NCBI RefSeq assembly: GCF_000186885.1
Contig: NC_014972.1
Location: 660,001-692,000 of the forward strand
Reading direction: 5' to 3'
DNA from: Desulfobulbus propionicus DSM 2032
GTDB lineage: Bacteria > Desulfobacterota > Desulfobulbia > Desulfobulbales > Desulfobulbaceae
Length of the DNA stretch: 32,000 nucleotides
The position numbers were made by a program, and so were the translations under genes. This document shows, piece by piece, positions 4,912 through 31,044 of the stretch; position 1 is the first letter of the stretch, and each line of letters begins with the position of its first letter. The notes beneath the pieces were generated by a model. The model did not search any database and had not been told where the DNA came from. It saw nothing but the letters and a program-made list of their open reading frames with translations.

Positions 4912-5727
4912 TTACCCCAGGGCCACGTCAAGAATCATCATGGTGGCAAAACCGCTCAGGGTGGCCATGGTCACCAGGTCGATATGTTTGGTGTTGCGCT
5001 GCGATTCCGGAATCAGTTCCTCCACCACCACGAAGATCATCGCCCCGGCGGCGAAACAGAGGGCATAGGGAAGGATCGGCTGCATCTTGAGGACGAACAG
5101 CGCTCCCAAAACGCCGGCGATCGGCTCGACCAGCCCCGAGGCCTGGCCGAGAAAGAAACTTTTCCGGCGGCTGAGGCCCTCGCGCCGCAACGGCATGGAC
5201 ACCGCCGTGCCCTCGGGAAAATTCTGCAGGCCGATGCCGATGGCCAGCGCCATGGCCCCGCCGATGGAGGCCGAGGGCAGATCCGCGGCCACCGCGCCGA
5301 AGGCCACGCCCACCGCCAGCCCCTCGGGGATGTTGTGCAGGGTGATGGCCAGCACCAGCAGCGTGCTGCGCTGCCAGGAGGTTTTGATCCCTTCCCGTTG
5401 GGACATGGCCAGGCCGGGATGGAGATGGGGCAGGATTCTGTCGATCAGGCGCATGAACACACCTCCGGCCATGAAGCCGACGGCAGCGGTCAGCCAGGGA
5501 GTGTGGCCCAGGGCTTCGGCCATCTCGATTCCCGGCGCCAGCAGCGACCAGAAGCTGGCCGCGATCATCACCCCGGCGGCAAAGCCGAGCAGTCCGTCGA
5601 GGAGCCGCTGGTTGATCTCGCGGTGCATGAACACCAGGCCGGCGCCGGCAGCGGTCATGGCCCAGGTGAACAGGGTGGCCAGCAGGGCCAGGAAAACAGG
5701 GTGGACATGTTGCAGAAATCCAAACAT
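4912..5727 (-). CDS. ZIP-family divalent metal (zinc/iron) transporter
   Basis: ATG at 5727 is preceded by GGGAGG. The 271-aa polytopic protein carries ZIP motifs [10 protein letters not shown] and [10 protein letters not shown]. The 677-aa ORF in the track is an upstream read-through artefact. The stop lies 5 nt before the hybrid kinase start. Confidence 0.85.
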
Positions 5728-5840
5728 GAGGAGGCCTCCCGTGGGTGGATGAGCGGTAAGAGCGTCTGCGGCGGGAAAATCGTCCGCCGGCCCTGAATAT
5801 ACTCCGTGGTCCCCTCGGACGGATATGGAAAAATGCGCGG

Positions 5841-6755
5841 TCAGCAGCGAGGAGCGGCTGTCCCGCCCGGCTCCCGCGGCAGAGAACGCATCCGTCCCGG
5901 GAGGCGGCGTTCGAGCAGGGTCTCGAAGTGGCGGACCACCTGCCAGTAGCGGCCGAGATCGATCCCGGTTTCGATCCCCATGCCGTTGAAGAGGTGGAGG
6001 GCCTCCTCGGTGGCCACGTTGCCGCCCGCTCCCTCGATGCAGGGGCAGCCGCCCAGGCCGCCCGCGGCCACGTCGAAAATGCGTACCCCGGCCTCGTAAC
6101 CGGCGTACAGGTTGACCAATCCCATGCCCCAGGTATCGTGGCAATGGAGCGACAGCTCGACCTGTGGATGGGCGGTGCGCACCAGGCCCACCAGCCGTTT
6201 GATCTGCAGGGGACCGGCCATGCCGGCGGTGTCGGCCAGGTTGATCTCCTGCGCGCCGGCCTCGACCATCCGCGCCACCGCCTCCAGCACCGTATTTTCG
6301 GCAATGACGCCTTCCTCGGCGCAACCGAAGGCGCACTGCAAACCGGCCCGCACCCGGATGCCGCCGGCCACGGCCCGGGTGATCAACCCGGTCATGGCCT
6401 CCAGGGCCTCGGCCGTGGAGCGGCCGGTGTTTGTGCGGCTGTGGCTGTCGGAGACCGAGGCGGACATGCTCAGATGGCCAAGGCCGCTGCGCGCCGCCCG
6501 TTCCAGCCCCTTTTCGTTGAGCACCAGGGCTGTGCACAGGATGTCCGGATACTGCCGCCGCACCAGGGAGACGAGCACGTCGGTGTTGGCCACCTGCGGC
6601 ACGGAACGCGGGCTGACAAAGCTGCCGAGCTGCACCCTGCGCACCCCGGCCTCGGCCAGCAGCCGGACAATCTCCATCTTTTCCGTCAGGCTGAACAGCC
6701 GGTTTTCCGCCTGCAATCCGTCCCGCAGCGACTCTTCTTCCAAGACAACCCGCAT
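5841..6755 (-). CDS. HMG-CoA lyase-like (DRE-TIM metallolyase family) protein
   Basis: ATG at 6755 follows AAGGAG. N-terminus EESLRDGLQ, metal/active-site region [10 protein letters not shown] and HCHDTWGMG, and GLGGCP near the C-terminus. Confidence 0.8.
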
Positions 6756-6792
6756 CACTTCTCCTTGATGAAATTCCCCCTCCCTGTCCAGT

Positions 6793-6808
6793 CGGCACGT
6801 TCGATGCA
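6793..6808 (+). promoter_or_regulatory. Candidate sigma-54 (-24/-12) promoter facing the kinase/PAS/activator operon
   Basis: CGGCACGTTCGATGCA has GG and GC separated by exactly 10 nt, and its -12 element ATGCA is identical to that of the strong site at 11773. The palindromic sites would lie downstream of it, which is atypical. Confidence 0.35.
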
Positions 6809-6833
6809 GGAGCGAGGGAGAAAACGACATTTT

Positions 6834-6849
6834 TGCTGCGCGCATGCCA
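6834..6849 (-). promoter_or_regulatory. Candidate sigma-54 promoter facing the HMG-CoA-lyase-like/ZIP/hybrid kinase genes
   Basis: The minus strand reads TGGCATGCGCGCAGCA with correct GG-N10-GC spacing, about 80 nt upstream of ATG 6755. It overlaps palindrome 6846-6861, so it may be a chance by-product of that motif. Confidence 0.3.
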
Positions 6850-6903
6850 CATAGGTGTGGTATGAGTGTGGCAGCGTGCCACTGGATGCCGCACAACTGT
6901 GGC
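6846..6903. promoter_or_regulatory. Pair of 16-bp palindromic sites (candidate activator binding sites), region A
   Basis: GCCACATAGGTGTGGT (6846-6861) and GCCGCACAACTGTGGC (6888-6903), starts 42 bp apart. An inverted GTGGC-N5-GCCAC lies between them at 6868-6882. Confidence 0.45.
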
Positions 6904-6943
6904 GCATTTCGATCTGGTAACGAATGAAAAATAATAGCATGTC

Positions 6944-8989
6944 ATGGACCAAGAAGCGAAAAGAATAGCGCTGTATGTGCAGCGCTACAAGCTGTTACGG
7001 GAGATCGGCGAGCTCCAGGTCGAGGCGGCGGCGGATGAGGCGGCCTTTCTCACCCGCTGTTGCGCGCTGCTGCTCCAGGATCCGGAATACTGCCTGATCT
7101 GGGTGGGCCGCGAGGAACAGGACGGCACGCTCACCCCGGTGACCACCGTGGTCCAGCAGGGACTGCCGGCCCCGCAGTGCCGGGGCTTGGTGGTTCAGCT
7201 CGTGTCCGAGGCGGCGGTCACCATCACCGCGGCCCAGGCCTTGGCCAAGGGCGAACCGGTCGTGACCAGCCTCGCGCCCGCCGAGGAATCGGAGCCGTCG
7301 CCCCTGACCCTGCTGACCACGATCACCGGCAGCCGCGTCTGCGGATCCTGGCCCCTGCTGCATGATCGGCAGAAATATGGGGTACTGACCATCCATTCGA
7401 TCCGCGAGGGCGGGTTGAGCGGCATCGAGCTCGATTTCATCGCCAACGTGGTGGCCACCATCTCGCGCACCCTCTTCCTGCGCCACACCTCGCATCACCT
7501 CCGCCTGGAGCACGACTTCAACTGCGAGATCGTGCAGACCGTGCAGGCCCTTTTGGTGTCGCTCTCCCATTGCGGCGAGATCCTCTCCTTCAACCGCACC
7601 GCCCAGGAGGTCACCGGCTACGGCGAGGCCGAGGTCAAGGGGAGGTTCTGGGTCGATGTGCTCATCAGTCCGGAGCGGCGGGCGGCCAGCCAGAACCAGC
7701 TGTCGCGGGTGCTCAAGGGAGGCCAGTCGGAGATGAATTTCCGGGCCGAACTCCAGACCCGCGGCGGCGACAAGCGGATGATCGAGTGGCACGGCTCCAT
7801 TCGGCCGGACATCGAGCAGGGCCGGGTGGGGCTGGTGCTGTTCGGCATCGACATCACCAACCGGATGGCGGCGGACCGGGCGCTCACCCATGCCCTGGCC
7901 AAGTGGGAAAACATCTTTTCCTCGGTCCAGGATCCGGCCCTGATTGTTTCCGCCCAGGGCACCATCCTCGATGTCAACCCCGCGACCGTGGCGGCGGCGC
8001 GCCGCCCCCGCGAGGAAATCATCGGCCGGGGGGTGTGCGAGATTCTCCACGGCGGCCGCAGACCGGGGGCCATCTGCCCTCTGGAGGTCCTGCTCGGCCA
8101 GCAGAAGAGCCGGATCTTCGAGACCGAGCTGCGCGGCCTGCGCGGCAACTTCCTGCTCACCGTCAGCCCCCTGCGCCAGGAGGACGGCACCTCCGAGGTC
8201 TCCCTGCTGCTCGCCCGCGACCTGACCGAAGAGCAGCTGATGAAGGCCGAGGCCTTCCGCGCCGCTCAACTGGCCTCGGTGGGCGAGCTGGCCGCCGGCG
8301 TGGCCCACGAGATCAACAACCCGATCAACGGCATCATCAACTACGCCCAGATCCTGCTCGACTCCAACCAGAGTCAGCAGCACACCCATTTCCTCCACTG
8401 CATCATCAAGGAAGGGCGGCGGATCGCCGGAATCACCAAGAATCTGCTCGATTTTTCCCGCAAGCGGGAAGAGTCGCCCGAACCGGTCAGCGTGCCCACC
8501 CTGTTCCGCCACTGCATCGAGCTGATCCAGCACCAGTACCTGATCGACGGTATTGCCCTGTCCGAGGAGTATGCCGCCGATCTGCCGCTGGCCTTCTGCA
8601 ATCCGCAGCAGATCCAGCAGGTGTTTCTCAACGTGTTCAGCAACGCCCGCTACGCCCTCAATGAACGCTACCCCCTGCCGCACGCCAACAAACGCATTGC
8701 CATCGCCGCCCTGCGCCGACAGCGCGATAACCGGGAATTCGTGCGCATCACCATCACCGATTACGGTACCGGCATCGAGCACGATTTGATGGATCGGGTG
8801 ATGGACCCCTTTTTTTCCACCAAGACCAAGGGCGAGGGCACCGGCCTGGGCTTGAGCATCAGCCACAGCCTGGTGCGGGAGAACAAGGGCTTGTTCCGCC
8901 TCCAGAGTCAGTGGGGCAAATGGACCATGGTCACCATCGATTTGCCGGCGGCTGAGGAACAGCGTGCCCGGGACGAACGTCCTCGCTGA
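6944..8989 (+). CDS. Soluble sensor histidine kinase (GAF-like N-terminus, two PAS domains, HisKA, HATPase_c)
   Basis: 681 aa with no predicted TM helix. H-box [22 protein letters not shown] (His codon 8306-8308), N-box [12 protein letters not shown]1 DYGTGI and G2 GEGTGLGLS. No Shine-Dalgarno is visible upstream of ATG 6944. Confidence 0.9.
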
Positions 8990-9034
8990 TCGAGGGCGCC
9001 CTTTCCCGTCAACATCCTTCAAGAGGAGCATCTC

Positions 9035-9801
9035 ATGCCTGAACAGACCCGTTTCATCGTCCAACTGGGAATCCTGTTCCTGGTGGCGGCCATCCTTCTG
9101 CTGCTGATGGACCGGCAGATGCTCATCGGTCCGGAGGAACTGGCGCAGTGGCCCTTTGCGCTGTTGTCCCTGGTGGTGGTCGCAGGACTGTTTGCGGTGG
9201 TGGCCCTGCTGACCCATGCGCGGCTGCGCGCCCTGGACCGCTCGCTCGCCGCCCTGGAGCACCAGCTGGCCGAGGCCAACCATGAACTGACCCTGACCCG
9301 CAACACCCTCGAACAGCGGGTGGAGCGGCGGACCTTTGAAATTTCGGTGGCCAACGCTTCGCTCAACCGGGAGATCGCCGAGCGGATCCAGGCCGAGGCC
9401 GAGACCAGGCGGATCAAGCGGCGGATGGAGCTGATCCTCGAATCAGCGGGCGAGGGCATCTTCGGCCTGGACATCGACGGCAAGGTGACCTTTGTCAACA
9501 AGGCCGCGGCGCTGATGCTCGGCTGGGAGGCGGACGATCTGGTCGGACAGTCGCACCATGCGCTCATTCACCACACCCGGGCCGACGGCACCTCCTACCC
9601 GGTCAGCCAGTGCCCGATCCACCAGGCCTACCGCGACGGCAAGGTCCATTTCGGCGACGACGAGGTATTCTGGAAGCGTGACGGCGCCAGTTTTCCGGTG
9701 GCATACATCAGCACCCCCATTCTGGAAAACCGCCGCCTGACCGGCGCGGTGGTGGTCTTCCGCGACCTGACCTCCTATCGCCAACCCCAGCCCCTGGGAG
9801 A

Positions 9802-9805
<4 letters not shown>
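9035..9805 (+). CDS. Membrane-anchored stand-alone PAS-domain protein (2 TM, coiled coil, PAS; no output domain)
   Basis: AAGAGGAG RBS upstream. Two hydrophobic helices (LGILFLVAAILLLL and LLSLVVVAGLFAVVALL), a heptad-rich linker, and a PAS core EGIFGLDIDGKVTFVN...CPIHQAYRDG...FWKRDGASFPV. The stop overlaps the next start (ATGA at 9802-9805). Confidence 0.8.
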
Positions 9806-11598
<1,793 letters not shown>

Positions 11599-11602
11599 GC
11601 GC

Positions 11603-11651
11603 GCCACGATTGTGTGGTCACGAAACTGTGGCGATGCCACGGTTTCGTGGT
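11603..11651. promoter_or_regulatory. Pair of 16-bp palindromic sites, region B (overlaps a hairpin that may also terminate the activator gene)
   Basis: GCCACGATTGTGTGGT (11603-11618) and GCCACGGTTTCGTGGT (11636-11651), starts 33 bp apart and about 120-170 bp upstream of the sigma-54 promoter at 11773. CACGAAACTGTGGC (11619-11632) pairs with GCCACGGTTTCGTG (11636-11649), followed by GTTTTCC. Confidence 0.5.
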
Positions 11652-11772
11652 TTTCCCTCCTGCCCGCCGCCGCGTGCCTGCCGGCTGCCCCTCGGTTGTG
11701 TCTCGATTGTTTTGTGCGGAGTCAAAGGCGGATAGGGCTAAATCGCCGGTGCGGCACCAATCCGGTTCAGTG

Positions 11773-11788
11773 TGGCACTTCCCATGCA
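11773..11788 (+). promoter_or_regulatory. Sigma-54 (-24/-12) promoter
   Basis: TGGCACTTCCCATGCA: perfect TGGCAC, exact GG-N10-GC spacing, and a -12 ATGCA. It lies 54 nt upstream of ATG 11842 and immediately downstream of a sigma-54 activator gene. Confidence 0.65.
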
Positions 11789-11841
11789 AACGTCCGTAGC
11801 CAAGTGGATAGGTATGTCCCCTCAGCTCCTGGACCGCCATC

Positions 11842-12776
11842 ATGGACACGACCAGCGCCGAAAACCAGAGTCCCATTCTCAAGACCTTTGACCAGCTCTT
11901 TCCCACGGAAGAGGACTGCGTTGCCTTTCTGTTTCCCTTGCGCTGGCCGCAGGGATTTGTCTGCCCCTTCTGCCGCACCCGTCATCCGCAGCTGACGCCC
12001 CGTCGCTACCCGGTCTGTCCGCACTGCGGCAACCGCAGTTCGCTGACCACCGGCACCCTGATGCACGGGGCCAAGAAACCGCTCCGGGAATGGCTGCTGA
12101 CCATCTGGTGGTTCAGCGCCCAGCCGCTGGATGTCAGCGCCAAGGAGTTGCAGCGGCTGCTGGGCACCTCCTGCTACCAGACGGCCTGGACCTGGCTGCA
12201 GAAACTGCGCCTGGCCATGGGGCGGGCCGATGACGAACGCTGCCGGGGGGTGGTGGAGATCGGCTGCGGCCTCGTGGCCCCGGCGTACGAGCGCAAGGAA
12301 CGCGCCCTGGTGCTGACCGCCGCCGAAATCGTGCTCGCCCTCGGCATCACCGGCCGTATTCGCATGCGCCACATCCCCCAGCTCGACCGCAAGCAGCTGG
12401 TGCTGTTTCTCCACGACGCGGTCCAGGTCAACAGTACCCTGCTCAGCGGCGACGCACAGCTGCTCGCCCTCCTGGACCAGGCAGGCCCCTATGCCGTGGC
12501 CCCGACGCAGCCCGATTCCTTGCTGCAGCCGTCGCGGGCCTTCGAGCTGGGTCGTAGTTTCGAGACCTGCCTGCACACCGTGCACCGCGGCGGGGTCACG
12601 GTCAAGCACCTCCAGCTCTACCTCGATGAATTCTGCTTTCGCAACAATGCCTCGCTCCTGTCCGATCACCAGGCGGTGTTCAGGGCCCTGCTCAGCGGCG
12701 TGCTGGGAAGCGCGGGGCATCCGGAGCAGGCGACCCGGCCGCTGCACGAGGCGGCGCGCCGCGGCGGGAGGCAGCC

Positions 12777-12780
<4 letters not shown>
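11842..12780 (+). CDS. IS1595-family transposase homolog (zinc-ribbon plus ISXO2-like domain), apparently catalytically degenerate and without IS ends
   Basis: N-terminus FPTEEDCVAFLFPLRWPQGFVCPFC...CPHCG...TTGTLMH and C-terminus KHLQLYLDEFCFRNN are hallmark IS1595 transposase motifs. The usual VE(V/I)DET catalytic motif reads VEIGCG (12256-12270). The stop overlaps the ftsH start. Confidence 0.75.
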
Positions 12781-14629
<1,849 letters not shown>

Positions 14630-14633
<4 letters not shown>

Positions 14634-15160
14634 CGATTAATCCCAAGGCCGTGCTCGCGGCCGCGGTTGTACTGCTGGCCGGGGCCTTGCCAACGCCTGG
14701 CCTGGCCCTGGAGCAGATCGATGCGCCGGAGACGGTGACCATCGATGCCCTGGCCAATCTGTATCAGCCGGTCCAATTCAGCCACAAACGACATGCGCAG
14801 CTGGCCCGATGCAAGGATTGCCATCACCACACCACCGGCCACCAGGACATGGATCCCAACTGCGTCCGCTGCCATGCCCATTCCCCGGAAGCCAGCACCG
14901 TGTCGTGCAAGGACTGCCATACCCACAAGCAGTTCTATCCCGAACAGGTCACCGCTACCGACAACCGCAACCTCTATCACATCGACAAACCGGGACTGAA
15001 GGGCGCCTACCACCTCAACTGCGTGCCCTGCCACGTGAAGAAGAACGCGCCGTCGCACTGCGAGGGCTGCCACGCCATGACCGATGCCGGCAAAACCTTC
15101 TTTCATCTTGACGGCAAGGGGCAGGGCAAGGCCAACGCCAAGGACAGCCACGGTAAATGA
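14630..15160 (+). CDS. Periplasmic pentaheme c-type cytochrome (cytochrome c3-like)
   Basis: Sec signal peptide (AVVLLAGALPTPGLA) and five CxxCH motifs: CKDCH, CVRCH, CKDCH, CVPCH, CEGCH. A c3-like VQFSHKRH motif is present. GGAGG RBS upstream, with ATGA overlap to the ftsH stop. Confidence 0.85.
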
Positions 15161-15197
15161 TCCCGCATACACATTAACGCCACAACCACAGAGGTAC

Positions 15198-16133
15198 ATG
15201 ACCATGAAGACATTGATCAATCGGAGAAGGTTTCTGCGGGGCAGTCTGGCTGCCTCGGCCGCGGCAACCGTCTCCCTGGCCAAGAAAACAGACGCCGCGA
15301 CCTTTGAGGGCTATCCCGACGCCATGGGCGTGCTGGTCGACCTGTCGCGCTGCGTCGGCTGCCGCAGCTGCGAGGCCGCGTGCAACAAGGAGCAGCACCT
15401 GCCCGCGCCGGAAAAGCCGTTCAACGATTTTTCGGTCTTCGACGAGCTGCACCACGGTCAGAAGCGACGCACCGACGAGACCCGCTACACGGTGGTCAAC
15501 CGCTACGACATTCCCGGCAGCGAGCATCCGCTCTTTCGCAAGATCCAGTGCAACCATTGCCTGGAGCCGGCCTGCCTGACCAGCTGTTTCGTCAATGCCT
15601 ACACCAAGACCCCAGAGGGCGCGGTCGTCTACGACCCCAGCGTGTGCGTGGGCTGCCGGACCTGCATGATCGCCTGCCCCTTCTATATCCCGACCTTCCG
15701 CTACTCCAGCGCGTTCAAGCCGCGGATCATGAAGTGCGTCTTCTGCCACGATACCCGCTTGACCAAGGGACTGCCGCCGGCCTGCGTCGAAGCCTGTCCG
15801 CAGGAGGCCCTGACCTTCGGCCGCCGTTCCGACCTGGTGGCCATGGGCACGCAGCGCATTCGCGAGAATCCCGGCGCCTATGTCGACCATATCTACGGCG
15901 AGCACGAAGCCGGCGGAACCTCCTGGATGTATCTGTCACCGGCGCCCTTCGACCAGGTGGGCATGGACACCTCGGTTCCCAAGGAGCCCATCCTCAACTA
16001 TGTCAAGGACTTCCTGTCCATCGTCCCCATGGTGCTGACCATCTGGCCGGCCTTGTTTGCCGGGTTCAATCTCCTGGCGACCAGGAAAGACACAATGGAA
16101 CAACAGAAGAACAACAACGAGGGGGAGGTCTGA
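15198..16133 (+). CDS. NrfC/HybA-like 4Fe-4S ferredoxin subunit with Tat signal and C-terminal TM anchor
   Basis: Twin-arginine signal NRRRFLRGSLAASAAA. Four cluster motifs: CVGCRSCEAAC, CNHCLEPAC, CVGCRTCMIACP and CVFCHD...ACVEACP. A C-terminal hydrophobic helix is present. The start may be ATG 15204 instead. Confidence 0.88.
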   Translation: MTMKTLINRRRFLRGSLAASAAATVSLAKKTDAATFEGYPDAMGVLVDLSRCVGCRSCEAACNKEQHLPAPEKPFNDFSVFDELHHGQKRRTDETRYTVVNRYDIPGSEHPLFRKIQCNHCLEPACLTSCFVNAYTKTPEGAVVYDPSVCVGCRTCMIACPFYIPTFRYSSAFKPRIMKCVFCHDTRLTKGLPPACVEACPQEALTFGRRSDLVAMGTQRIRENPGAYVDHIYGEHEAGGTSWMYLSPAPFDQVGMDTSVPKEPILNYVKDFLSIVPMVLTIWPALFAGFNLLATRKDTMEQQKNNNEGEV

Positions 16134-16136
16134 GCC

Positions 16137-17390
16137 ATGCACACCTTTATCAACAACAAGCAGGAAATTCCGGTTGTCTCCCATCTCAAGCCGGATGGGG
16201 GGGTGTGGACCGTCAAGGAAAAACTCTGGCTGGGCCTGAGCCGCGAGGACTACAAGGCCCAGTTCCTGCGCAACCCGGTCAATTGGGTACTGATCTTCAT
16301 TTTCGCCATCGGCGTGCCGCTGCTCATCCAGCGCTACCTGTTCGGGCTCGATACCGTCACCCACGCCTCCAACGACTATCCCTGGGGCCTGTTTTTGGGG
16401 TTCGGGCTGTTCGGCATGGTGCCCCTGTCCGCCTCGGGGTTTCTGCTGGGCACCACGGTGGAGATTTTCGGCCGCAAGGATTTCGCGCCCATCGAACGGC
16501 TGGCCCTGCTCAACGGCCTGCTCGGCTACTTCTTTGCCGTCGTCTATCTTCTGGTCGATTTGGGCATGCCCTGGCGCCTCTACTACCCGATGTTCATCTC
16601 GCTCGGGCCGGCGGCGGTGCTCTTCCTCGTGGCCTGGCATGTGGCCACCTACCTGTCGGTGCAGATCGCCGAGGTGTCGTCGGCTTATTTCGAGTGGGTC
16701 GGCTGGCTCAAGGGCAAACGATTTGTCAAGTCGATCACCATCGGTCTGACCATCGCCGGCATCATCCTGTCCACCCTGCACCAGGGGGCGTTGGGCGCGC
16801 TGTTCACCTACGCGCCCACCAAGGTCCACCCGCTCTGGTTTTCGGCCAACTTTCAGTGGATCCATTTCTTCTGCTCGGCCATCTTCGCCGGCCTGTCCAT
16901 GGTCATCTGCTCCGCGACCCTGTGCAAGCATTTCATGATCTGGCGCTGCGACCGCCGCTTCCTGGACAACGTCGACCGATGCACTCTCGGGCTGGGCAAG
17001 GGATGTGCCTATGCCCTGATCACCTATCTGGTGATCAAGCTGGTCGGGGTGGCGCATGACCAGGATTGGGCCTACCTGCTGACCGGCTGGGGGCAATATT
17101 TCCTCCTGGAAATGGCGGTGGCCGTGGTGCTGCCGATGATCCTCTTCGCCTACGGGGTCAAGCACCGGCGCGTGGCCATGGTGCGCTTCGCCGCCCTGAT
17201 CAGCGTGCTCGGCATTGTCTGGAACCGGCTCAACACCTCGATGATCTGCTTCAACTGGCAGCTCTACCAGGAGATCCCGCATTGGAAGGAGGTGTGGATC
17301 ACCATCACCATCTTCGCCCTCTATTTCATCGTCTATCGGTTCATTCTCTACCGGTTGCCGATCCTGTATGAATGGCGGGGCGAAAAATGA
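16137..17390 (+). CDS. NrfD/PsrC-family integral membrane quinol-interacting subunit
   Basis: 417-aa polytopic membrane protein with about 8-10 helices, placed immediately after the NrfC-like gene (3-nt gap, GGGGGAGG RBS). This is the typical NrfC-NrfD pairing. Confidence 0.85.
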   Translation: MHTFINNKQEIPVVSHLKPDGGVWTVKEKLWLGLSREDYKAQFLRNPVNWVLIFIFAIGVPLLIQRYLFGLDTVTHASNDYPWGLFLGFGLFGMVPLSASGFLLGTTVEIFGRKDFAPIERLALLNGLLGYFFAVVYLLVDLGMPWRLYYPMFISLGPAAVLFLVAWHVATYLSVQIAEVSSAYFEWVGWLKGKRFVKSITIGLTIAGIILSTLHQGALGALFTYAPTKVHPLWFSANFQWIHFFCSAIFAGLSMVICSATLCKHFMIWRCDRRFLDNVDRCTLGLGKGCAYALITYLVIKLVGVAHDQDWAYLLTGWGQYFLLEMAVAVVLPMILFAYGVKHRRVAMVRFAALISVLGIVWNRLNTSMICFNWQLYQEIPHWKEVWITITIFALYFIVYRFILYRLPILYEWRGEK

Positions 17391-17402
17391 TGTGGCAGGT
17401 TG

Positions 17403-17445
17403 CGGATTCCGGCAGCCCCCTGGCCTCTTCCCGTGCCGGAATCCG
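17403..17445 (+). other. Strong intercistronic stem-loop (12-bp perfect stem)
   Basis: CGGATTCCGGCA (17403-17414) pairs with TGCCGGAATCCG (17434-17445) around a 19-nt loop. No U-tract follows. It lies between the nrfD-like stop and the GGAGG RBS of the next gene. Confidence 0.5.
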
Positions 17446-17466
17446 TGACCACCTCGGAGGTCTGTC

Positions 17467-18918
17467 GTGACGTCCCGCAGACAAGGCGCTCGCCGGTGGC
17501 CATGGACCGATTGGCCGCTCAACCGGCTGTTTGCCGCCATCACCGTCTCGGTGCTGCTGTTTCTTTCGGCGGTCCTGGTTCTCGGCGTCCGCCAGTATCT
17601 GCTCTATCACCAATGCCGCCAGGCGGTGGCTGCGGGCGACCGGCTGCTGTTCCAGTTCACCGCCATCAAGGATCATCTCGACGGCTCCCTGATTGTCGGC
17701 GAGGAGGTCAATCTTCATGCCCTTGACGCGGAATTGCAGAGCCTTGAAAAAGAGGTGGGCGCATTGGCGGCCAACATCCTGGTGCCCGAGGGGCTGAAGC
17801 GGATGCTGCCCTCCCGGGTGGACCTGGTCGGTCTGGAGGTGCGGCTGCGGGCGGTGCAGGAGAACCGCCCGCAAAAGATCCGGGAAGCGGCGGAACTGGT
17901 CCGTTCCCTTGGCGGGATCAATGTCGGCTTGCAGCAGTTTCGCTTTAGCCTGAGTGATCATACGCAAATTATCCTTCTGGGCCTGCACAAGATCATTGCC
18001 GGCGCCCTGGGGCTGATCGTGGTCGTGTCCTGTTCGCTGCTGTTCGTGCTCAACCGCCGCCTGGCCGGCCCGATCCTGGCCCTGTGCAGGCTGACCGCCG
18101 CCGCTGGCCCGGACGAGGAGGATTCGAGCTGTTCCCTGCACACCCTGACCGATCGCATTCGCCAACTGCTGGACCGGGAGAGGGAACGGGAGCAATCCCC
18201 AGCGCCGGCCGCGCCGACCACCCCCGATCAGCTTCGTCTGGCCGCGCTCCGCTACCGGTACGGCGTGACGGGCTGGATCGGCACGGAACTGGCGAGCGAG
18301 CTGACCAACCGCATCAACGGGGTGATCAACTACACGCAGGCGCTGATCGATCTCAACGAGCAAGGGAAGGGGGACCGGCAGCAGATGGCTCGGGTCTGCG
18401 AGCTGCTGGCCAGCGAGGAAAAGAAGACCGCAGAACTGGTCGGAGCCCTGCAACGGATCTGTCAGTGGCAGCCCGCGCGGACATCAAGCGTCTCCCTGCG
18501 CACCCTGTTTCATCTCCTGGGCCTGATTTTCGAGAAATCGCTGCGGGCCGAATCCATTCTCCTCACCCTGCCGGCCGACTGCGATGCCGAGGCCGCGGTC
18601 GCCGCCGGCGATCTCTGGCTGGTGGCCCTGACCCTGGTGGAGCAGGGCCGCCGGATCCTGCTCGACGGCATGGCCGATCCGCCCGGGGAAAAACGGCTGC
18701 ATATCGAATGCAGGAAACAGCCAGGCGAGCGTTTTCGGCTGACACTGCTGTTCACCAACAGCGCCGGTCTGTGGGAGGCCCCCCTGGACCCAGTTTGGCC
18801 GTCGCTCTCCTTCTGCACGCATCTGTTGCAGGTGCATGACGCCTCGCTCACCCTGGAAGCCTCCGACGGCGGGACGCTCCTGCTCCTTGAACTGCCGTGC
18901 CGCGGTTCCGTGGCATAA
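17467..18918 (+). CDS. Membrane-bound degenerate histidine-kinase paralog (pseudo-kinase: H-box His replaced, ATP-binding boxes absent)
   Basis: GTG start 6 nt after GGAGG, and two TM segments. The DHp-like segment ELASELTNRINGVINYTQALIDL aligns with [26 protein letters not shown] of the kinase at 6944, with Ser (AGC 18295-18297) at the His position. No recognisable N, G1 or G2 boxes. Confidence 0.7.
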   Translation: MTSRRQGARRWPWTDWPLNRLFAAITVSVLLFLSAVLVLGVRQYLLYHQCRQAVAAGDRLLFQFTAIKDHLDGSLIVGEEVNLHALDAELQSLEKEVGALAANILVPEGLKRMLPSRVDLVGLEVRLRAVQENRPQKIREAAELVRSLGGINVGLQQFRFSLSDHTQIILLGLHKIIAGALGLIVVVSCSLLFVLNRRLAGPILALCRLTAAAGPDEEDSSCSLHTLTDRIRQLLDREREREQSPAPAAPTTPDQLRLAALRYRYGVTGWIGTELASELTNRINGVINYTQALIDLNEQGKGDRQQMARVCELLASEEKKTAELVGALQRICQWQPARTSSVSLRTLFHLLGLIFEKSLRAESILLTLPADCDAEAAVAAGDLWLVALTLVEQGRRILLDGMADPPGEKRLHIECRKQPGERFRLTLLFTNSAGLWEAPLDPVWPSLSFCTHLLQVHDASLTLEASDGGTLLLLELPCRGSVA

Positions 18919-18940
18919 CGCCGTTTTCATGAAGACGATG

Positions 18941-18971
18941 ACGCCGCACTGTGGTGCGGCGTTTGTTTATT
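18941..18971 (+). terminator. Rho-independent terminator ending the six-gene operon
   Basis: ACGCCGCAC (18941-18949) pairs with GTGCGGCGT (18954-18962) around the loop TGTG, followed by TTGTTTATT. Confidence 0.7.
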
Positions 18972-19058
18972 CGTGACGCGAACCCCCCGCCGCCCAACCT
19001 GTCCGCCACGCTTCGCAACAGAACCGTGACAGACGCGCCACAGCATTGGCAGCCGCAC

Positions 19059-19104
19059 GCCACGGTCTTGTGGCCGCCATGGTGTGGTGCCACATAAGCG
19101 TGGT
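19059..19104. promoter_or_regulatory. Pair of 16-bp palindromic sites, region C
   Basis: GCCACGGTCTTGTGGC (19059-19074) and GCCACATAAGCGTGGT (19089-19104), starts 30 bp apart and about 100-145 bp upstream of the sigma-54 promoter at 19205. An AT-rich tract (19131-19195) lies between them and the promoter. Confidence 0.5.
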
Positions 19105-19204
19105 GGCGCAATGCCTGCCAGCCGTCGGGGGATTTGAGAAAAAATTGTATTTATATCGGATTGTTGGACGTTGTGGTTGATTTTTCGTTCACAAGAGATC
19201 TTCC

Positions 19205-19220
19205 TGGCATCGCGGGTGCA
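19205..19220 (+). promoter_or_regulatory. Sigma-54 (-24/-12) promoter
   Basis: TGGCATCGCGGGTGCA with exact GG-N10-GC spacing, 53 nt upstream of ATG 19273. Confidence 0.6.
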
Positions 19221-19272
19221 CTGTCAAGGGCAAAACGAAGTCTATCACCCTCACCACTTCAAGGAGGACACC

Positions 19273-19470
19273 ATGACAACCCAAATTATCAACAAGAACG
19301 AGACCAAGACCGATGTCGCCCAGGAAACGTCCAAATTCACCGTGCGGATCGTGATGACCATGGCCGGCCTGATTGGCATCTGGGCGTTGGCCTGCCTGAT
19401 TGGCGGCTTGGCCAGCGGCGGGGTCGGCAATCTGATTCAAGGATACATCAGTACGATTATTGGGCACTGA
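19273..19470 (+). CDS. Small single-pass membrane protein (65 aa), unknown function
   Basis: AAGGAGG RBS at 19261-19267. Sequence MTTQIINKNETKTDVAQETSKFTVRIVMTMAGLIGIWALACLIGGLASGGVGNLIQGYISTIIGH, with one Gly-rich TM helix. The longer ORF-track start at 19171 has no RBS. Confidence 0.65.
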   Translation: MTTQIINKNETKTDVAQETSKFTVRIVMTMAGLIGIWALACLIGGLASGGVGNLIQGYISTIIGH

Positions 19471-19505: not shown

Positions 19506-19808
19506 ATGTCTGACAACAAAAGCAGCAAACGTGTATCGGCCATCATGCTGGGATTGGGCACCATCGTGGTTTTGTGGGTGGTGGCGGCCTTTGTCGGCGC
19601 CCTGCACCACACCAACTGGCAGTTCGGCGAATTGGCCCGGCAGTACATGTTGGCCACCGGGATGATGAAGTCGTTGCACACCGCGGTCGATTTTTACACC
19701 CATATCAAGGGCATCGAATATCTGATCTGCGTGGCCTTCTTCGTCGCCTTCCCCATCTTCTTCAAGTATGTCAACAAGGAGAAGCGCACCGTGCCGGTGA
19801 GCAAGTAG
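19506..19808 (+). CDS. Small two-pass membrane protein (100 aa), unknown function
   Basis: AAGGAG RBS at 19493-19498. TM1 is VSAIMLGLGTIVVLWVVAAFVGAL and TM2 is IEYLICVAFFVAFPIFFKYV. The 224-aa ORF-track version has an implausible N-terminal extension. Confidence 0.7.
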   Translation: MSDNKSSKRVSAIMLGLGTIVVLWVVAAFVGALHHTNWQFGELARQYMLATGMMKSLHTAVDFYTHIKGIEYLICVAFFVAFPIFFKYVNKEKRTVPVSK

Positions 19809-24960: not shown

Positions 24961-25176
24961 TGTTGAAGCAAGGGGGATGCCAAGTCGATACCCCTGGACA
25001 AGAGTGGCTAAGGGCTTGCTTCTGTGTATGCATGGAGGATTGGTCGTGCGGCGGGATAGCGCGAGGTGGCGGTTGTGCGACTGTTAACGATGCAATACGG
25101 TCGCGCGAGCGCTACTGTTTGAGGGCACGGGAAGATCGCGCGCCCCGTCCCTGGCAGGGCGCGTTGCGTCTGGCCC

Positions 25177-28187: not shown

Positions 28188-29018
28188 ATGGACCTGCACT
28201 TCACCATTGACCGCGACCTGTGCATCCAGTGCGGTGCCTGTGCCGACGACTGTCCGTTTCATATCATCGACCTGACCGACGGGTATCCGGCCCTCAATCC
28301 CGCCCGAGAGCACCATTGCATCCAATGCCAGCACTGTCTGGCGGTCTGCCCGACCGCCGCCCTGTCCATCTGCGGCTGCGATCCGCACCAGTCGCTGCCC
28401 CTGCCGCAGAGTCTGCCCAGCGGTCAGCAGATGGAGGCCCTGATCCGCGGGCGACGATCGGTGCGCCGCTATCATCCGGAAGCGCTGGACCCCGCCCTGA
28501 TCGCGGACCTGCTCCGCACCGTGGCCAACGCCCCCACCGGAAAGAACAACCGCCAGTGTCTGTTCACCGTGATCGAGGACCGGGCGAGCATGGATGTCTT
28601 CCGCCGGGAAACCATGGAGGGGCTGCGCCGGGCCGTGGCCAGCAAGCGGCTTTCCGAAGGCTTGAGCTACTTCCGCCACGTGGTCACCGCCTGGGATCAG
28701 GGCAAGGACATCATCTTCCGCAACGCCCCCCATTTGCTGATGGTATCGGCTCCCCCGACCATCACCACCCCGGATGCCGACCTGCTGATCGCCATGAGCT
28801 ACTTCGAGCTGCTGGCCGCCTCCAAGGGCATCGGCACCCTGTGGAACGCCATGATCCGCTGGGCCCTGGCAACGATCGACACCGACCTGTACCGACTGCT
28901 CGGTATCCCCGATGACCACGTCAAGGGCTACACCCTGCTCTTTGGCCGACCGGCGGTCCACTATCATCGCACCGTGCAGCGCGACGAGGCGCGGATCAAC
29001 CGGGTGCGGCTGCCCTGA
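28188..29018 (+). CDS. Ferredoxin (2x[4Fe-4S]) fused to a nitroreductase-family domain
   Basis: AGGAGG RBS upstream. Cluster motifs CIQCGACADDCP and CIQCQHCLAVCP, then the nitroreductase pattern RRSVRRY...APTGKNNQ-like (APTGKNNRQ). Confidence 0.85.
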   Translation: MDLHFTIDRDLCIQCGACADDCPFHIIDLTDGYPALNPAREHHCIQCQHCLAVCPTAALSICGCDPHQSLPLPQSLPSGQQMEALIRGRRSVRRYHPEALDPALIADLLRTVANAPTGKNNRQCLFTVIEDRASMDVFRRETMEGLRRAVASKRLSEGLSYFRHVVTAWDQGKDIIFRNAPHLLMVSAPPTITTPDADLLIAMSYFELLAASKGIGTLWNAMIRWALATIDTDLYRLLGIPDDHVKGYTLLFGRPAVHYHRTVQRDEARINRVRLP

Positions 29019-29032
29019 TGCACCGGCGGCGC

Positions 29033-29066
29033 GGTCGCCAGCCCGTCTCGATGCGGGCTGGCGACC
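29033..29066 (+). terminator. Perfect 13-bp stem hairpin after the nitroreductase gene
   Basis: GGTCGCCAGCCCG pairs with CGGGCTGGCGACC around an 8-nt loop, 15 nt after the stop codon. No U-tract follows. A second hairpin lies at 29158-29181 (CCGACCGA/TCGGTCGG). Confidence 0.5.
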
Positions 29067-29229
29067 GTGCCAACCTTCCCTGCCAGGCCAACGACCATCC
29101 TGGCGTTCCCCCCGTGTCTTCTCCTGCCCCGCCATTGCACTGATCGCGCCCATGAGGCCGACCGATTCCCGTGTCGGTCGGTTGCCACCTACTTTTGCCC
29201 CGAACAAGGGAAGATAACCGCAGTCAGCT

Positions 29230-29724
29230 TGAATAACAAAAATGCAACTCTCTTTGTTGCTGTTTTTATTGGTTAAAATTGAGGGATCCGCATGCGATAT
29301 TTTTTTCTCCGCTCTTGTTTGGCTGAAATCATGGAGCAAAGGGAGGTTAAAGAAAGAAGCTGTCTGCTAAGCAAGAAATGGAGTATTGGCGAGCTTTAAC
29401 GAGTAAATTGAAGATATGGTGAAATAGTGTTTTGTGCACAACCTGTTGATAACTTTTTGAACCAAAATTTAATTATTTGAAATTATATGATATTTTCTGA
29501 TTTTTTGTAAAATTGACGCTTTCATTGGGGGTTGCGGTTGCCCCGCCGTGGAAAGCCCATTGCCTGCAAGGGATTCCAGACTGTGGACAAACTTCTTGTT
29601 TGTACCGTGAAATCGACTCAAACCGCTTTTGACCGGTGGCGGGATTTTCTGTAGATCATGGCCTATCCAACGGGCCGTTTGCGGTCCCGGGAAAAATTGT
29701 TCACGAGGAAGGGAAAAGAATTGT
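29230..29724. other. Candidate chromosomal replication origin (oriC) upstream of dnaA
   Basis: A sharp drop in GC content with a very AT-rich core at about 29455-29515. DnaA-box-like 9-mers: TGTTGATAA (29444-29452, 1 mismatch), TGTGGACAA (29582-29590, 1 mismatch) and TGTGCACAA (29433-29441, 2 mismatches). It is adjacent to dnaA. Confidence 0.5.
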
Positions 29725-31044
29725 ATGCTGTGGAACGCGATTAAAACCTCTTTGCACGGAGCCATACCGGAGAGCGAATTCGGCCTGTGGATCAAACCGC
29801 TGGAATGCCGGCGGCACGATGACGGGGTGTTGGAGCTTGTCGGACCGGACCGGTTTTTCTGCGCCTGGGTGGAAGATCGTTATCTGGGGCTTATTCGCAC
29901 CAAGGCGGCGGAACTGGGCGAGATCACCGACGTGCGGCTGCAAGCGGCCGCCACTCCGCCCCTGCGCTTTGAGAGCGGCAAGGGTGGTCAGCTCAAGCTG
30001 CCGGGCGTGACCAGCGCCGGGCCCCGACTGCGCTCCCTCCATCCGGCCTTCACCTTTGAGCAGTTCATGGTCGGCGAATCAAACCTGTTGGCCCGATCCG
30101 CCTGCCAGGCACTGGCCACCGGCGACGCCACCTTCGGCAACTGCCTGTTCATGAACAGCACCACCGGGCTGGGCAAGAGCCATCTGACCCAGGCCGTGGT
30201 TCACCAGGTGCTGCGCTCCGCCCCGTCCACCCGGTTGCACTATCTCACCGCCCAGCAGTTTTCCGCCGAGATGGTCAAGGGCATCCGCACCAACGCCATG
30301 GAGCAGTTCTCCAAAAAATACATCAACGACTGCGACATGCTACTGGTCGAGGACGTCCATACCCTGACCGGCAAGACCAAGACCCAGGAAGAACTCAACA
30401 CCATCCTCGACTACCTGATCAAATCCGGCCGTCGGGTCATCCTGACCTCGGCCCTGCCGCCGACCAAGCTGGCGGGCATTGACGACGATTTCCGCAGTCG
30501 CATGACCTCGGGCCTGGTCACCGGCATTGAGTCGCCCGATTACGAAACCCGGGCGCGGATCATCCGCCACAAGCTGCAGATGCACGGCCTGGGCGCGGAC
30601 GAGGACTTGGTGGGTTTCATGGCCGAGAGTCTGCAGGGCGATGTCCGCCGCATGGAGAGCGCGATCATCGGCATCAAGGCCAAGTCCTGCCTGCTGGGCG
30701 CGCCGCCGGATCTGGGCATGGTCCGGGAGGTGGTGTACGGGCTGATCGGCAGCCGGGCGGACATCACCGGCGAGGCGATCCGCGAGCTGATCGGCCGCCA
30801 GTTTCGGGTCAGCATCGAGGACCTGTGCTCCCGCTCGCGCAAGCGCTCGATCACCTTTCCCCGCCAGCTGGCCATGTACCTCACCCGCAAGTACACCACC
30901 AAGTCGCTGGCCGACATCGGCAGTCTGTACAACCGCGACCATTCGACCGTGCTCTACGCTATCAAGACCATCACCAAGGACATGTCGCAGCAGACCACGG
31001 TGCGGCAGCAGGTGGAACTGCTCTCCGCCAAGCTGAAGAACTAG
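29725..31044 (+). CDS. dnaA: Chromosomal replication initiator protein DnaA
   Basis: Walker A GLGKSHL, Walker B LLVEDVH, and the C-terminal DNA-binding signature LADIGSLYNRDHSTVLYAIKTI. ATG 29725 gives 439 aa. Confidence 0.95.
   Translation: MLWNAIKTSLHGAIPESEFGLWIKPLECRRHDDGVLELVGPDRFFCAWVEDRYLGLIRTKAAELGEITDVRLQAAATPPLRFESGKGGQLKLPGVTSAGPRLRSLHPAFTFEQFMVGESNLLARSACQALATGDATFGNCLFMNSTTGLGKSHLTQAVVHQVLRSAPSTRLHYLTAQQFSAEMVKGIRTNAMEQFSKKYINDCDMLLVEDVHTLTGKTKTQEELNTILDYLIKSGRRVILTSALPPTKLAGIDDDFRSRMTSGLVTGIESPDYETRARIIRHKLQMHGLGADEDLVGFMAESLQGDVRRMESAIIGIKAKSCLLGAPPDLGMVREVVYGLIGSRADITGEAIRELIGRQFRVSIEDLCSRSRKRSITFPRQLAMYLTRKYTTKSLADIGSLYNRDHSTVLYAIKTITKDMSQQTTVRQQVELLSAKLKN

Follow-up and report, generated by a model that had tools for sequence, protein, structure and literature searches.

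Within a 32,000-nucleotide stretch of the genome of Desulfobulbus propionicus DSM 2032 (contig NC_014972.1, positions 660,001 to 692,000; hereafter the window, whose own numbering is used throughout), a 16-bp palindrome recurs in three intergenic regions, A, B and C, among the genes of a sensor kinase, a transcriptional activator and several predicted membrane and redox proteins. The question that this locus raises is what the palindromes are for and which protein reads them. An earlier, sequence-only reading of the window had proposed that they are enhancer sites of a local sigma-54 regulon. The present analysis supports that proposal through the conservation of the sites, their linkage to sigma-54 promoters and the finding that they travel with these promoters. 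In our view the dyads are very probably enhancer sites (upstream activating sequences) for dimers of the two-component activator encoded at 9802-11598, a protein with receiver (REC), PAS, AAA+ and helix-turn-helix (HTH) domains, binding by which is predicted from the sequence.

All six palindromes quoted in the sequence-only reading were recovered with the correct positions and sequences (starting at 6846 and 6888 in region A, at 11603 and 11636 in region B and at 19059 and 19089 in region C). Within the pairs the start-to-start distances are indeed 42 bp (A), 33 bp (B) and 30 bp (C), and 15 of 17 positions are identical between the extended copies from regions A and C. The impression that the motif always occurs in pairs was not borne out, as region B contains a third dyad (11617-11632) and region C contains both an additional dyad (19015-19030) and a weak one (19073-19088). 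Nor is the motif confined to intergenic DNA: a seventh strict match, at 18899-18914, sits in the last codons of the open reading frame (ORF) at 17467-18918. Searched for as GCCRCRN4YGTGGY, the motif is present at seven distinct sites in the window compared with 0.31 expected, and this count was matched by none of 100 dinucleotide-preserving shuffles. A matrix built solely from the sites of other genomes gave nine hits at or above the threshold of 9 bits, all of them in regions A, B and C, compared with a mean of 1.2 hits on shuffled sequence.

In D. propionicus the motif takes the form GCCACR-N4-YGTGGY, with the centres of the half-sites 10 bp apart, a distance that fits a dimer of Fis-type HTH domains. 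Its dyad symmetry, 16-bp length and half-sites one helical turn apart are as expected of an enhancer site, for which about 16-18 bp is usual. The core can be written as nC-n-AC-R, a 4-bp spacer with AA or TT at its centre, and Y-GT-n-G-n, while the family-wide motif is GYNACR-N4-YGTNRC with the same spacer centre, which was observed in 73 of 102 strict sites. More distant genomes are less strict at base 3 of the half-site (GCCACA, GCAACA, GCTACA) and keep the AC...GT core and the 4-bp spacer. Positions 3 and 14 of the dyad vary independently of one another (complementary in 48 of 123 dyads, with 48.6 expected), which points to selection on the sequence of the half-sites and not on base pairing. 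Among the most distant relatives, which are of the Desulfurivibrio type, one locus (L072) has a dyad with a 5-bp spacer, GCCACA-N5-TGTTGC, and another (L077) has everted GTGTTGCAT...ATGCAACAC arrangements. These apparent changes suggest that the architecture of the site evolved together with the activator.

For comparison, 80 related loci of the order Desulfobulbales (1.36 Mb) were retrieved by a genome scan with the activator; the genera covered include Desulfobulbus, Desulfogranum, Desulfocapsa, Desulfofustis, Desulforhopalus and Desulfurivibrio. All but one of the 71 strict matches in these loci lie in three syntenic zones, located before the sensor kinase gene, directly after the activator gene and before two genes for small membrane proteins (sm1 and sm2). 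Together the zones make up 66 kb, or 4.8% of the DNA, so that the enrichment is about 1,400-fold. Nearly all loci share the gene order of the entire cluster, which runs kinase, PAS protein, activator, IS1595-like protein (in most loci), FtsH, cytochrome, HmcB-like protein, HmcC-like protein, 483-residue ORF (in many loci), sm1 and sm2. A -24/-12 promoter was found beside the sites in all 32 of the region B loci tested, in nearly all region C loci and in most region A loci. Each promoter is accompanied by two to five clustered sites, and those at 6793, 11773 and 19205 of the window are kept in the orthologues. Where the gene order is rearranged (loci L008 and L078) it is the target promoters that the sites accompany, and not the activator gene's 3' end, and where the FtsH operon is located elsewhere (L008, L078 and L079) no dyads follow the activator gene.

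The -24/-12 promoters that had been claimed for regions B and C are present at 11773-11788 and 19205-19220, both on the plus strand. The first of these, TGGCACTTCCCATGCA, would start transcription near 11799, and the form TGGCAC-N5-RTGCA is shared by every one of the region B loci tested. Upstream of it are three dyads, B1 (GCCACGATTGTGTGGT, 11603-11618), B2 (GTCACGAAACTGTGGC, 11617-11632, which overlaps B1 by 2 bp) and B3 (GCCACGGTTTCGTGGT, 11636-11651), centred at -188, -174 and -155 from the putative start. B1 and B3 were identified by the strict pattern and the matrix, and B2 by a relaxed search and the matrix, with further support for all three from the orthologues. The triplet, at offsets of 0/14/33 in the window, retains offsets of 14 and 33-35 bp in 41 loci that span the first five of the genera named above. 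Its distance from the promoter ranges among genomes from about -155 to about -400, and this variability is enhancer-like behaviour. The transcript of region B would begin with a leader, CCGTAGCCAAGTGGATAGGTA (11794-11814, plus strand), which was recognized by alignment and whose core, AAGTGGATAAGT, is invariant or nearly so among 13 aligned loci, distant ones included. Scans of the whole window with Rfam (at gathering thresholds) and for tRNAs gave no match, so the leader is not a known RNA.

The region C promoter, TGGCATCGCGGGTGCA, would start transcription near 19231 and is preceded by an AT-rich tract (about 19130-19200), and in most of the order an element of the form TGGCAY-N5-nTGCW is found about 63-97 nt ahead of the sm1 start codon. 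Two sites identified by both the strict pattern and the matrix, GCCACGGTCTTGTGGC (19059-19074) and GCCACATAAGCGTGGT (19089-19104), are centred at -164 and -134; these positions are the same in Desulfobulbus and agree to within 1 bp in Desulfogranum. The weak middle dyad between them, GCCGCCATGGTGTGGT (19073-19088), has a good right half alone and is degenerate in the orthologues. Further upstream is GCAACAGAACCGTGAC (19015-19030; relaxed search and matrix), centred at about -208, a position that was found again in loci L009, L011 and L013. The match within the ORF, GCCGCGGTTCCGTGGC (18899-18914), is at about -324 from the region C start. Among the loci compared, distal sites were placed at about -315 to -335, and in six Desulfobulbus loci they are located at -313 to -357.

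Region A had been described without a promoter in the sequence-only reading. A -24/-12 element which that reading had missed, CGGCACGTTCGATGCA (6793-6808, plus strand), is located upstream of the sites; most of the 36 loci compared (35 orthologous loci and the window) retain its GG-N10-GC, and the conserved element, (C/G)GGCAC-N5-ATGCA, is again upstream of the dyads. This promoter is predicted to drive an operon of the kinase, PAS-protein and activator genes from a start near 6819. Being downstream of it, the dyads would fall in the leader of that operon, with A1 (GCCACATAGGTGTGGT, 6846-6861) centred at about +35 and A2 (GCCGCACAACTGTGGC, 6888-6903) at about +77; both were identified by the strict pattern and the matrix. 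Measured from the -12 GC, the first dyad comes after 34-38 bp in most of the same 36 loci and after 44 bp in one, and the second comes after 78-87 bp in the orthologues. A weak dyad between the promoter and A1, ACGACATTTTTGCTGC (6824-6839), scores below the matrix threshold, is kept in the Desulfobulbus clade only and is a candidate low-affinity site. An extra half-site, TGTGGC (6867-6872), is located one helical turn past the right half of A1, and the string around it, tttgTGTGGca, is conserved among Desulfobulbus loci. The arrangement suggests feedback on the regulator's own operon, which could take the form of activation, of a roadblock or of both. We also note a purine-rich string, AAGGGCAAAA, at 19221-19250 (AAGGYAAAG elsewhere), which is conserved about 10-20 nt past the region C promoter, and another, GAGGGAGAAAACGACA, in region A at a position resembling that of the first; the two may represent a shared leader element.

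The protein most likely to read the dyads is encoded between regions A and B. As had been claimed, the ORF at 9802-11598 (plus strand) specifies a sigma-54 activator with a Fis-type HTH_8 domain (Sigma54_activat, E = 6e-67; HTH_8, E = 7e-14). Its domain order is REC-PAS-AAA+-HTH_8, the receiver domain is present, the Walker motifs are intact (GESGTGKE), the loop is the GSFTGA variant of GAFTGA and the HTH domain is C-terminal. Its scores against the named models are all under the curated cut-offs (NtrC, 403 versus 559 bits; AtoC, 400 versus 714 bits; ZraR, 385 versus 760 bits), and identification as an NtrC, AtoC or ZraR orthologue was accordingly rejected. The activator is the sole HTH or DNA-binding protein common to every locus with the motif, and its HTH is nearly invariant over the loci that keep the AC/GT core.

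The dyads could instead be operators of another protein, either the zinc-ribbon protein of IS1595 type, whose gene directly follows region B, or a regulator from another part of the genome, with the activator binding other DNA or acting from solution. The IS1595-like protein combines a zinc ribbon with a transposase-type fold, most loci show synteny between its gene and the sites, and the identity of the dyad-binding protein is deduced from sequence comparison. However, the triplet and its promoter are kept in Desulfogranum-type loci that have no IS1595-like gene (L022, L023, L026, L029 and L042), and no HTH protein other than the activator is found in all motif-bearing loci. In addition, a 16-bp dyad with 10 bp between half-sites, clustered near a -24/-12 promoter, is the standard signature of sigma-54 activators. 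We consider it quite improbable that another protein is the binder. From the restriction of common HTH proteins to this one, the movement of the dyads with the promoters, the persistence of the triplet where the IS1595-like gene is missing and the independence of positions 3 and 14, we infer that the local activator binds the dyads.

A second possibility is that the palindromes serve mainly as nucleic acid hairpins, namely as an RNA terminator in region B, as leader hairpins or attenuators in region A, or as DNA cruciforms. In RNA, B2 and B3 (11617-11655) would pair perfectly over 14 bp, giving a hairpin with UUUU behind it that is placed 21 nt past the activator stop codon; several Desulfobulbus loci have a T-run after B3, and the region A sites lie within the predicted 5' untranslated region. 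B2 and B3 are inverted copies of one another, spacers included, and at other loci the inverted copies are instead B1/B3 or B1/B2. The T-run is, however, absent in loci L013 and L022 and in others, and the B2/B3 fold is modestly better than that of shuffled sequence (z = -2.2). The sequence of the half-sites is conserved beyond what pairing would explain, with positions 3 and 14, which vary independently, mismatched in 71 of 123 dyads. The region C sites are located between a strong intrinsic terminator, a 10-bp stem with a T-rich tail that ends the FtsH/cytochrome operon (18940-18963, plus strand), and the region C promoter, and so are probably untranscribed. A terminator role for B2 and B3 would also leave regions A and C unexplained. 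Hairpin formation as the main function is thus very improbable in our view; that B2 and B3 double, in a secondary role, as the terminator of the activator operon in this lineage is doubtful, but less so.

The chance that the matches are a composition artefact or a dispersed repeat (of the repetitive extragenic palindrome, REP, or miniature inverted-repeat transposable element, MITE, kind) without a regulatory role is negligible: the genome is GC-rich (about 64%) and many unrelated contigs from metagenomes contain paired GCCAC..GTGGC sequences, among which is a recurrent soil element, but the seven sites observed against 0.31 expected from shuffles, the positions relative to promoters conserved between genera, and the GC-rich spacers of the unrelated metagenome matches, with no activator gene or sigma-54 promoter nearby, all speak for a functional motif, and a GC-composition artefact is excluded by the roughly 1,400-fold enrichment in the syntenic zones together with the matrix hits compared with shuffles. 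A metagenome scan for paired strict sites returned at least 120 contigs, and among the matches listed only L146 and L177 belong to the cluster, the other listed contigs being unrelated high-GC repeats or coding matches without an activator gene or sigma-54 promoter. The soil element is 47 bp long (GCCACATCGCCGTGGTCAGGACCACTACAAAGCCACATCGCCGTGGT) and recurs in the high-GC soil contigs L081, L095, L097, L098, L100, L109, L119, L120 and L128; with neither an activator gene nor a promoter of the sigma-54 kind in its neighbourhood, it is unrelated to this system. A further sigma-54-like match in the window, at 24967 on the minus strand upstream of a TrmO-like gene, has no dyads nearby and was judged to be due to chance.

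Several observations weigh against the assignment of the dyads to the activator as enhancer sites. The region A sites are downstream of their promoter and rigidly placed, which is atypical of enhancers (these are usually 80-200 bp upstream), and such downstream sites could equally mean repression. Among the orthologous loci, no clean covariation of the HTH with the variable half-site position and no usable signal of it was found; the recognition helix hardly varies, and the variable position of the dyad is degenerate even inside single genomes. A search for the IHF consensus WATCAANNNNTTR with at most one mismatch gave no match in regions A to C, the enhancer-to-promoter stretches included; an IHF site or bend at that place is frequent in sigma-54 systems, though not indispensable. 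The rpoN gene lies outside the 32-kb window, so that the presence of sigma-54 is assumed, and we found no publication in the library searched that names these genes by locus tag.

In the mechanism that would follow from binding by the activator, a signal would be sensed by the GAF-PAS kinase (6944-8989), which presumably phosphorylates the receiver domain of the activator, possibly with the assistance of the PAS protein (9035-9805). Dimers of the activator on the clustered dyads would lead to the assembly of an active AAA+ hexamer, and by analogy with NorR three adjacent dyads could account for the six subunits of the AAA+ ring. The hexamer would reach the sigma-54 polymerase at the -24/-12 promoter by DNA looping, with ATP-driven opening. 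Promoter B (11773), with its upstream triplet at a variable distance, would control the genes for the IS1595-like protein, FtsH, the multihaem cytochrome, the HmcB-like and HmcC-like proteins and the 483-residue ORF. Promoter C (19205), with an upstream array rigidly placed at -134, -164, -208 and about -324, would control sm1 and sm2. Promoter A (6793), with downstream sites at about +35 and +77, would control the kinase, PAS-protein and activator genes, and this would constitute autoregulation.

A more far-reaching proposal, which we regard as rather unlikely, is that a single activator reads this dyad in three architectures, maintained separately through long evolution, that the downstream pair is also self-limiting and that the system is an order-wide module for a dedicated and so far undescribed membrane-redox quality-control response. 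If this were true, the first architecture would be an upstream triplet at a flexible distance, the second an upstream array in rigid phase and the third a downstream pair, likewise rigidly phased, on the promoter of the activator itself. This last pair would activate transcription and at high occupancy block it, acting as a built-in limiter. In this module of the Desulfobulbales, an Hmc-like periplasmic redox complex and the two small membrane proteins would then be coupled to an FtsH paralogue and to an IS1595 transposase that has been domesticated.

The regulatory principle is that of the textbooks, and no earlier description of the regulon itself came up when the literature was searched by organism, by gene content and by locus tag. 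The NtrC/glnAp2 system of enteric bacteria is similar in that a receiver-domain sigma-54 activator with a Fis-type HTH acts from clustered dyads of about 17 bp, two strong sites being about three helical turns apart and 100-150 bp upstream of the -24/-12 promoter, and in that its action is independent of distance. The NtrC motif, TGCACC-N5-GGTGCA, differs from GCCACR-N4-YGTGGY, the present activator has an extra PAS domain between the receiver and AAA+ domains and its targets are not nitrogen genes. ZraSR also resembles the present system, as its sigma-54 promoter drives a kinase and activator operon and is activated by the operon's own product, as may be the case here, and ZraR is among the best-scoring named models. 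It is unlike it in that the score of 385 bits is below the 760-bit cut-off, the ZIP gene next to region A is syntenic only in locus L001 and the site geometry is different. At the norVW enhancer of Escherichia coli all three NorR sites are required for ATPase activity and for formation of the oligomer (PMC2831303). With three adjacent dyads for one sigma-54 promoter, this enhancer is our model for the region B triplet, but NorR, which has a sensor of the GAF type, is no response regulator, and both its site (GT-N7-AC) and the spacing differ.

The closest functional parallel is the regulon of DVU3142 in Desulfovibrio vulgaris, a sigma-54 activator predicted to control the adjacent ohcBAC (Ohc) cytochrome complex (Kazakov et al., 2015; PMC4641369). 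There too an activator is encoded beside a complex of periplasmic cytochrome, iron-sulfur and membrane subunits in a sulfate reducer, and the comparative logic is the same. The DVU3142 motif, ACATGTGTTTAAACATGTGT, and HTH, GNISEAARLLGVYRGTVRNRM, both differ from those reported here, the regulon has no FtsH, IS1595-like or small membrane-protein genes and the organism belongs to a different bacterial order. None of the published D. vulgaris activator motifs that we inspected matches the present one. For region A, parallels are provided by Vibrio FlrC and Caulobacter FlbD, whose sites are downstream of sigma-54 promoters. In D. vulgaris a few enhancers, such as the DVU1063 sites, are located 40-70 bp downstream of promoters (PMC4641369). 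As in region A, the sites of these three proteins are tens of base pairs downstream of the promoter or transcript start. DVU1063, FlrC and FlbD are flagellar regulators, whereas here the sites are on the activator's own operon, at a distance of 34-38 bp that is fixed in several genera.

The motif, three promoters and their targets together constitute a testable regulon that is conserved over the Desulfobulbales, an order of sulfate reducers and sulfur disproportionators whose transcriptional regulation is almost entirely uncharted. The interest of the system lies in this order-wide conservation, in three geometries for one motif and in an unusual target operon. A conserved three-dyad enhancer alongside rigidly placed downstream sites offers a compact case for the study of enhancer geometry and hexamer assembly, and the targets (an FtsH paralogue, an Hmc-like complex, a transposase-derived gene and PF28260 proteins) point to an uncharacterized membrane or redox function.

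The first gene of the operon behind promoter B (11842-12780, plus strand; 100% identical to Despr_0623) encodes the IS1595-like zinc-ribbon/DDE protein. Its DDE domain match is sub-threshold (21 versus 27 bits), and the gene occupies a single, fixed syntenic position at the head of the FtsH operon in most loci of the order (the equivalent position in loci L002-L064), being missing from Desulfogranum-type and Desulfurivibrio-type loci. The single gene, the fixed position and the sub-threshold match speak against an active IS1595 insertion sequence, and the protein looks like a domesticated transposase and not a mobile element. It is followed by an FtsH-family AAA+ metalloprotease (12777-14633, plus strand; TIGR01241, 725 bits, above the cut-off) and by a three-gene redox module of the Hmc/Tmc/Ohc type (14630-17390, plus strand; Pfam and NCBIfam matches), within which the internal start codons are uncertain. 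The module consists of a small multihaem cytochrome c, an HmcB-like iron-sulfur protein with a twin-arginine translocation (TAT) signal and an HmcC-like membrane subunit. The equivalog scores for HmcB (401 versus 420 bits) and HmcC (359 versus 550 bits) are under the cut-offs, and the cytochrome has only 176 residues and scores 49 versus 400 against the 16-haem HmcA; the module therefore resembles the Hmc/Tmc/Ohc complexes but is not Hmc. The last gene of the operon (17467-18918, plus strand) encodes a predicted protein of 483 residues that is syntenic in many loci across the order and gave no match in Pfam, NCBIfam or PDB sequences.

Downstream of promoter C, sm1 (19273-19470, plus strand) encodes a predicted membrane protein of 65 residues, with a conserved ribosome-binding site, AGGAGGACACC, before its ATG, and sm2 (19506-19808, plus strand) encodes one of 100 residues that belongs to PF28260, the homologues of which are all unnamed. 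For neither of them, nor for the 483-residue protein, did the searches give an informative family or a relative of solved structure. Of the genes behind promoter A, that at 6944-8989 (plus strand) encodes a cytoplasmic sensor kinase with the Pfam domain order GAF-PAS-PAS-HisKA-HATPase and is syntenic in nearly all loci. The PAS protein encoded at 9035-9805 (plus strand), which is also syntenic, is without a kinase domain and has a hydrophobic N-terminus that we read as a membrane anchor.

Divergent from region A is a gene for a ZIP/ZupT transporter that ends at about 6756 on the minus strand, within a long ORF (4912-6945) of which only the C-terminal 260 residues form the transporter domain. 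With only one other locus (L001) showing this synteny, the gene is probably outside the regulon. Towards the far end of the window, within 29000-31041, is dnaA, a full-length gene on the plus strand (29629-31041); the stretch ahead of it is more AT-rich than any other in the window (GC 0.53) and may be a replication origin region.

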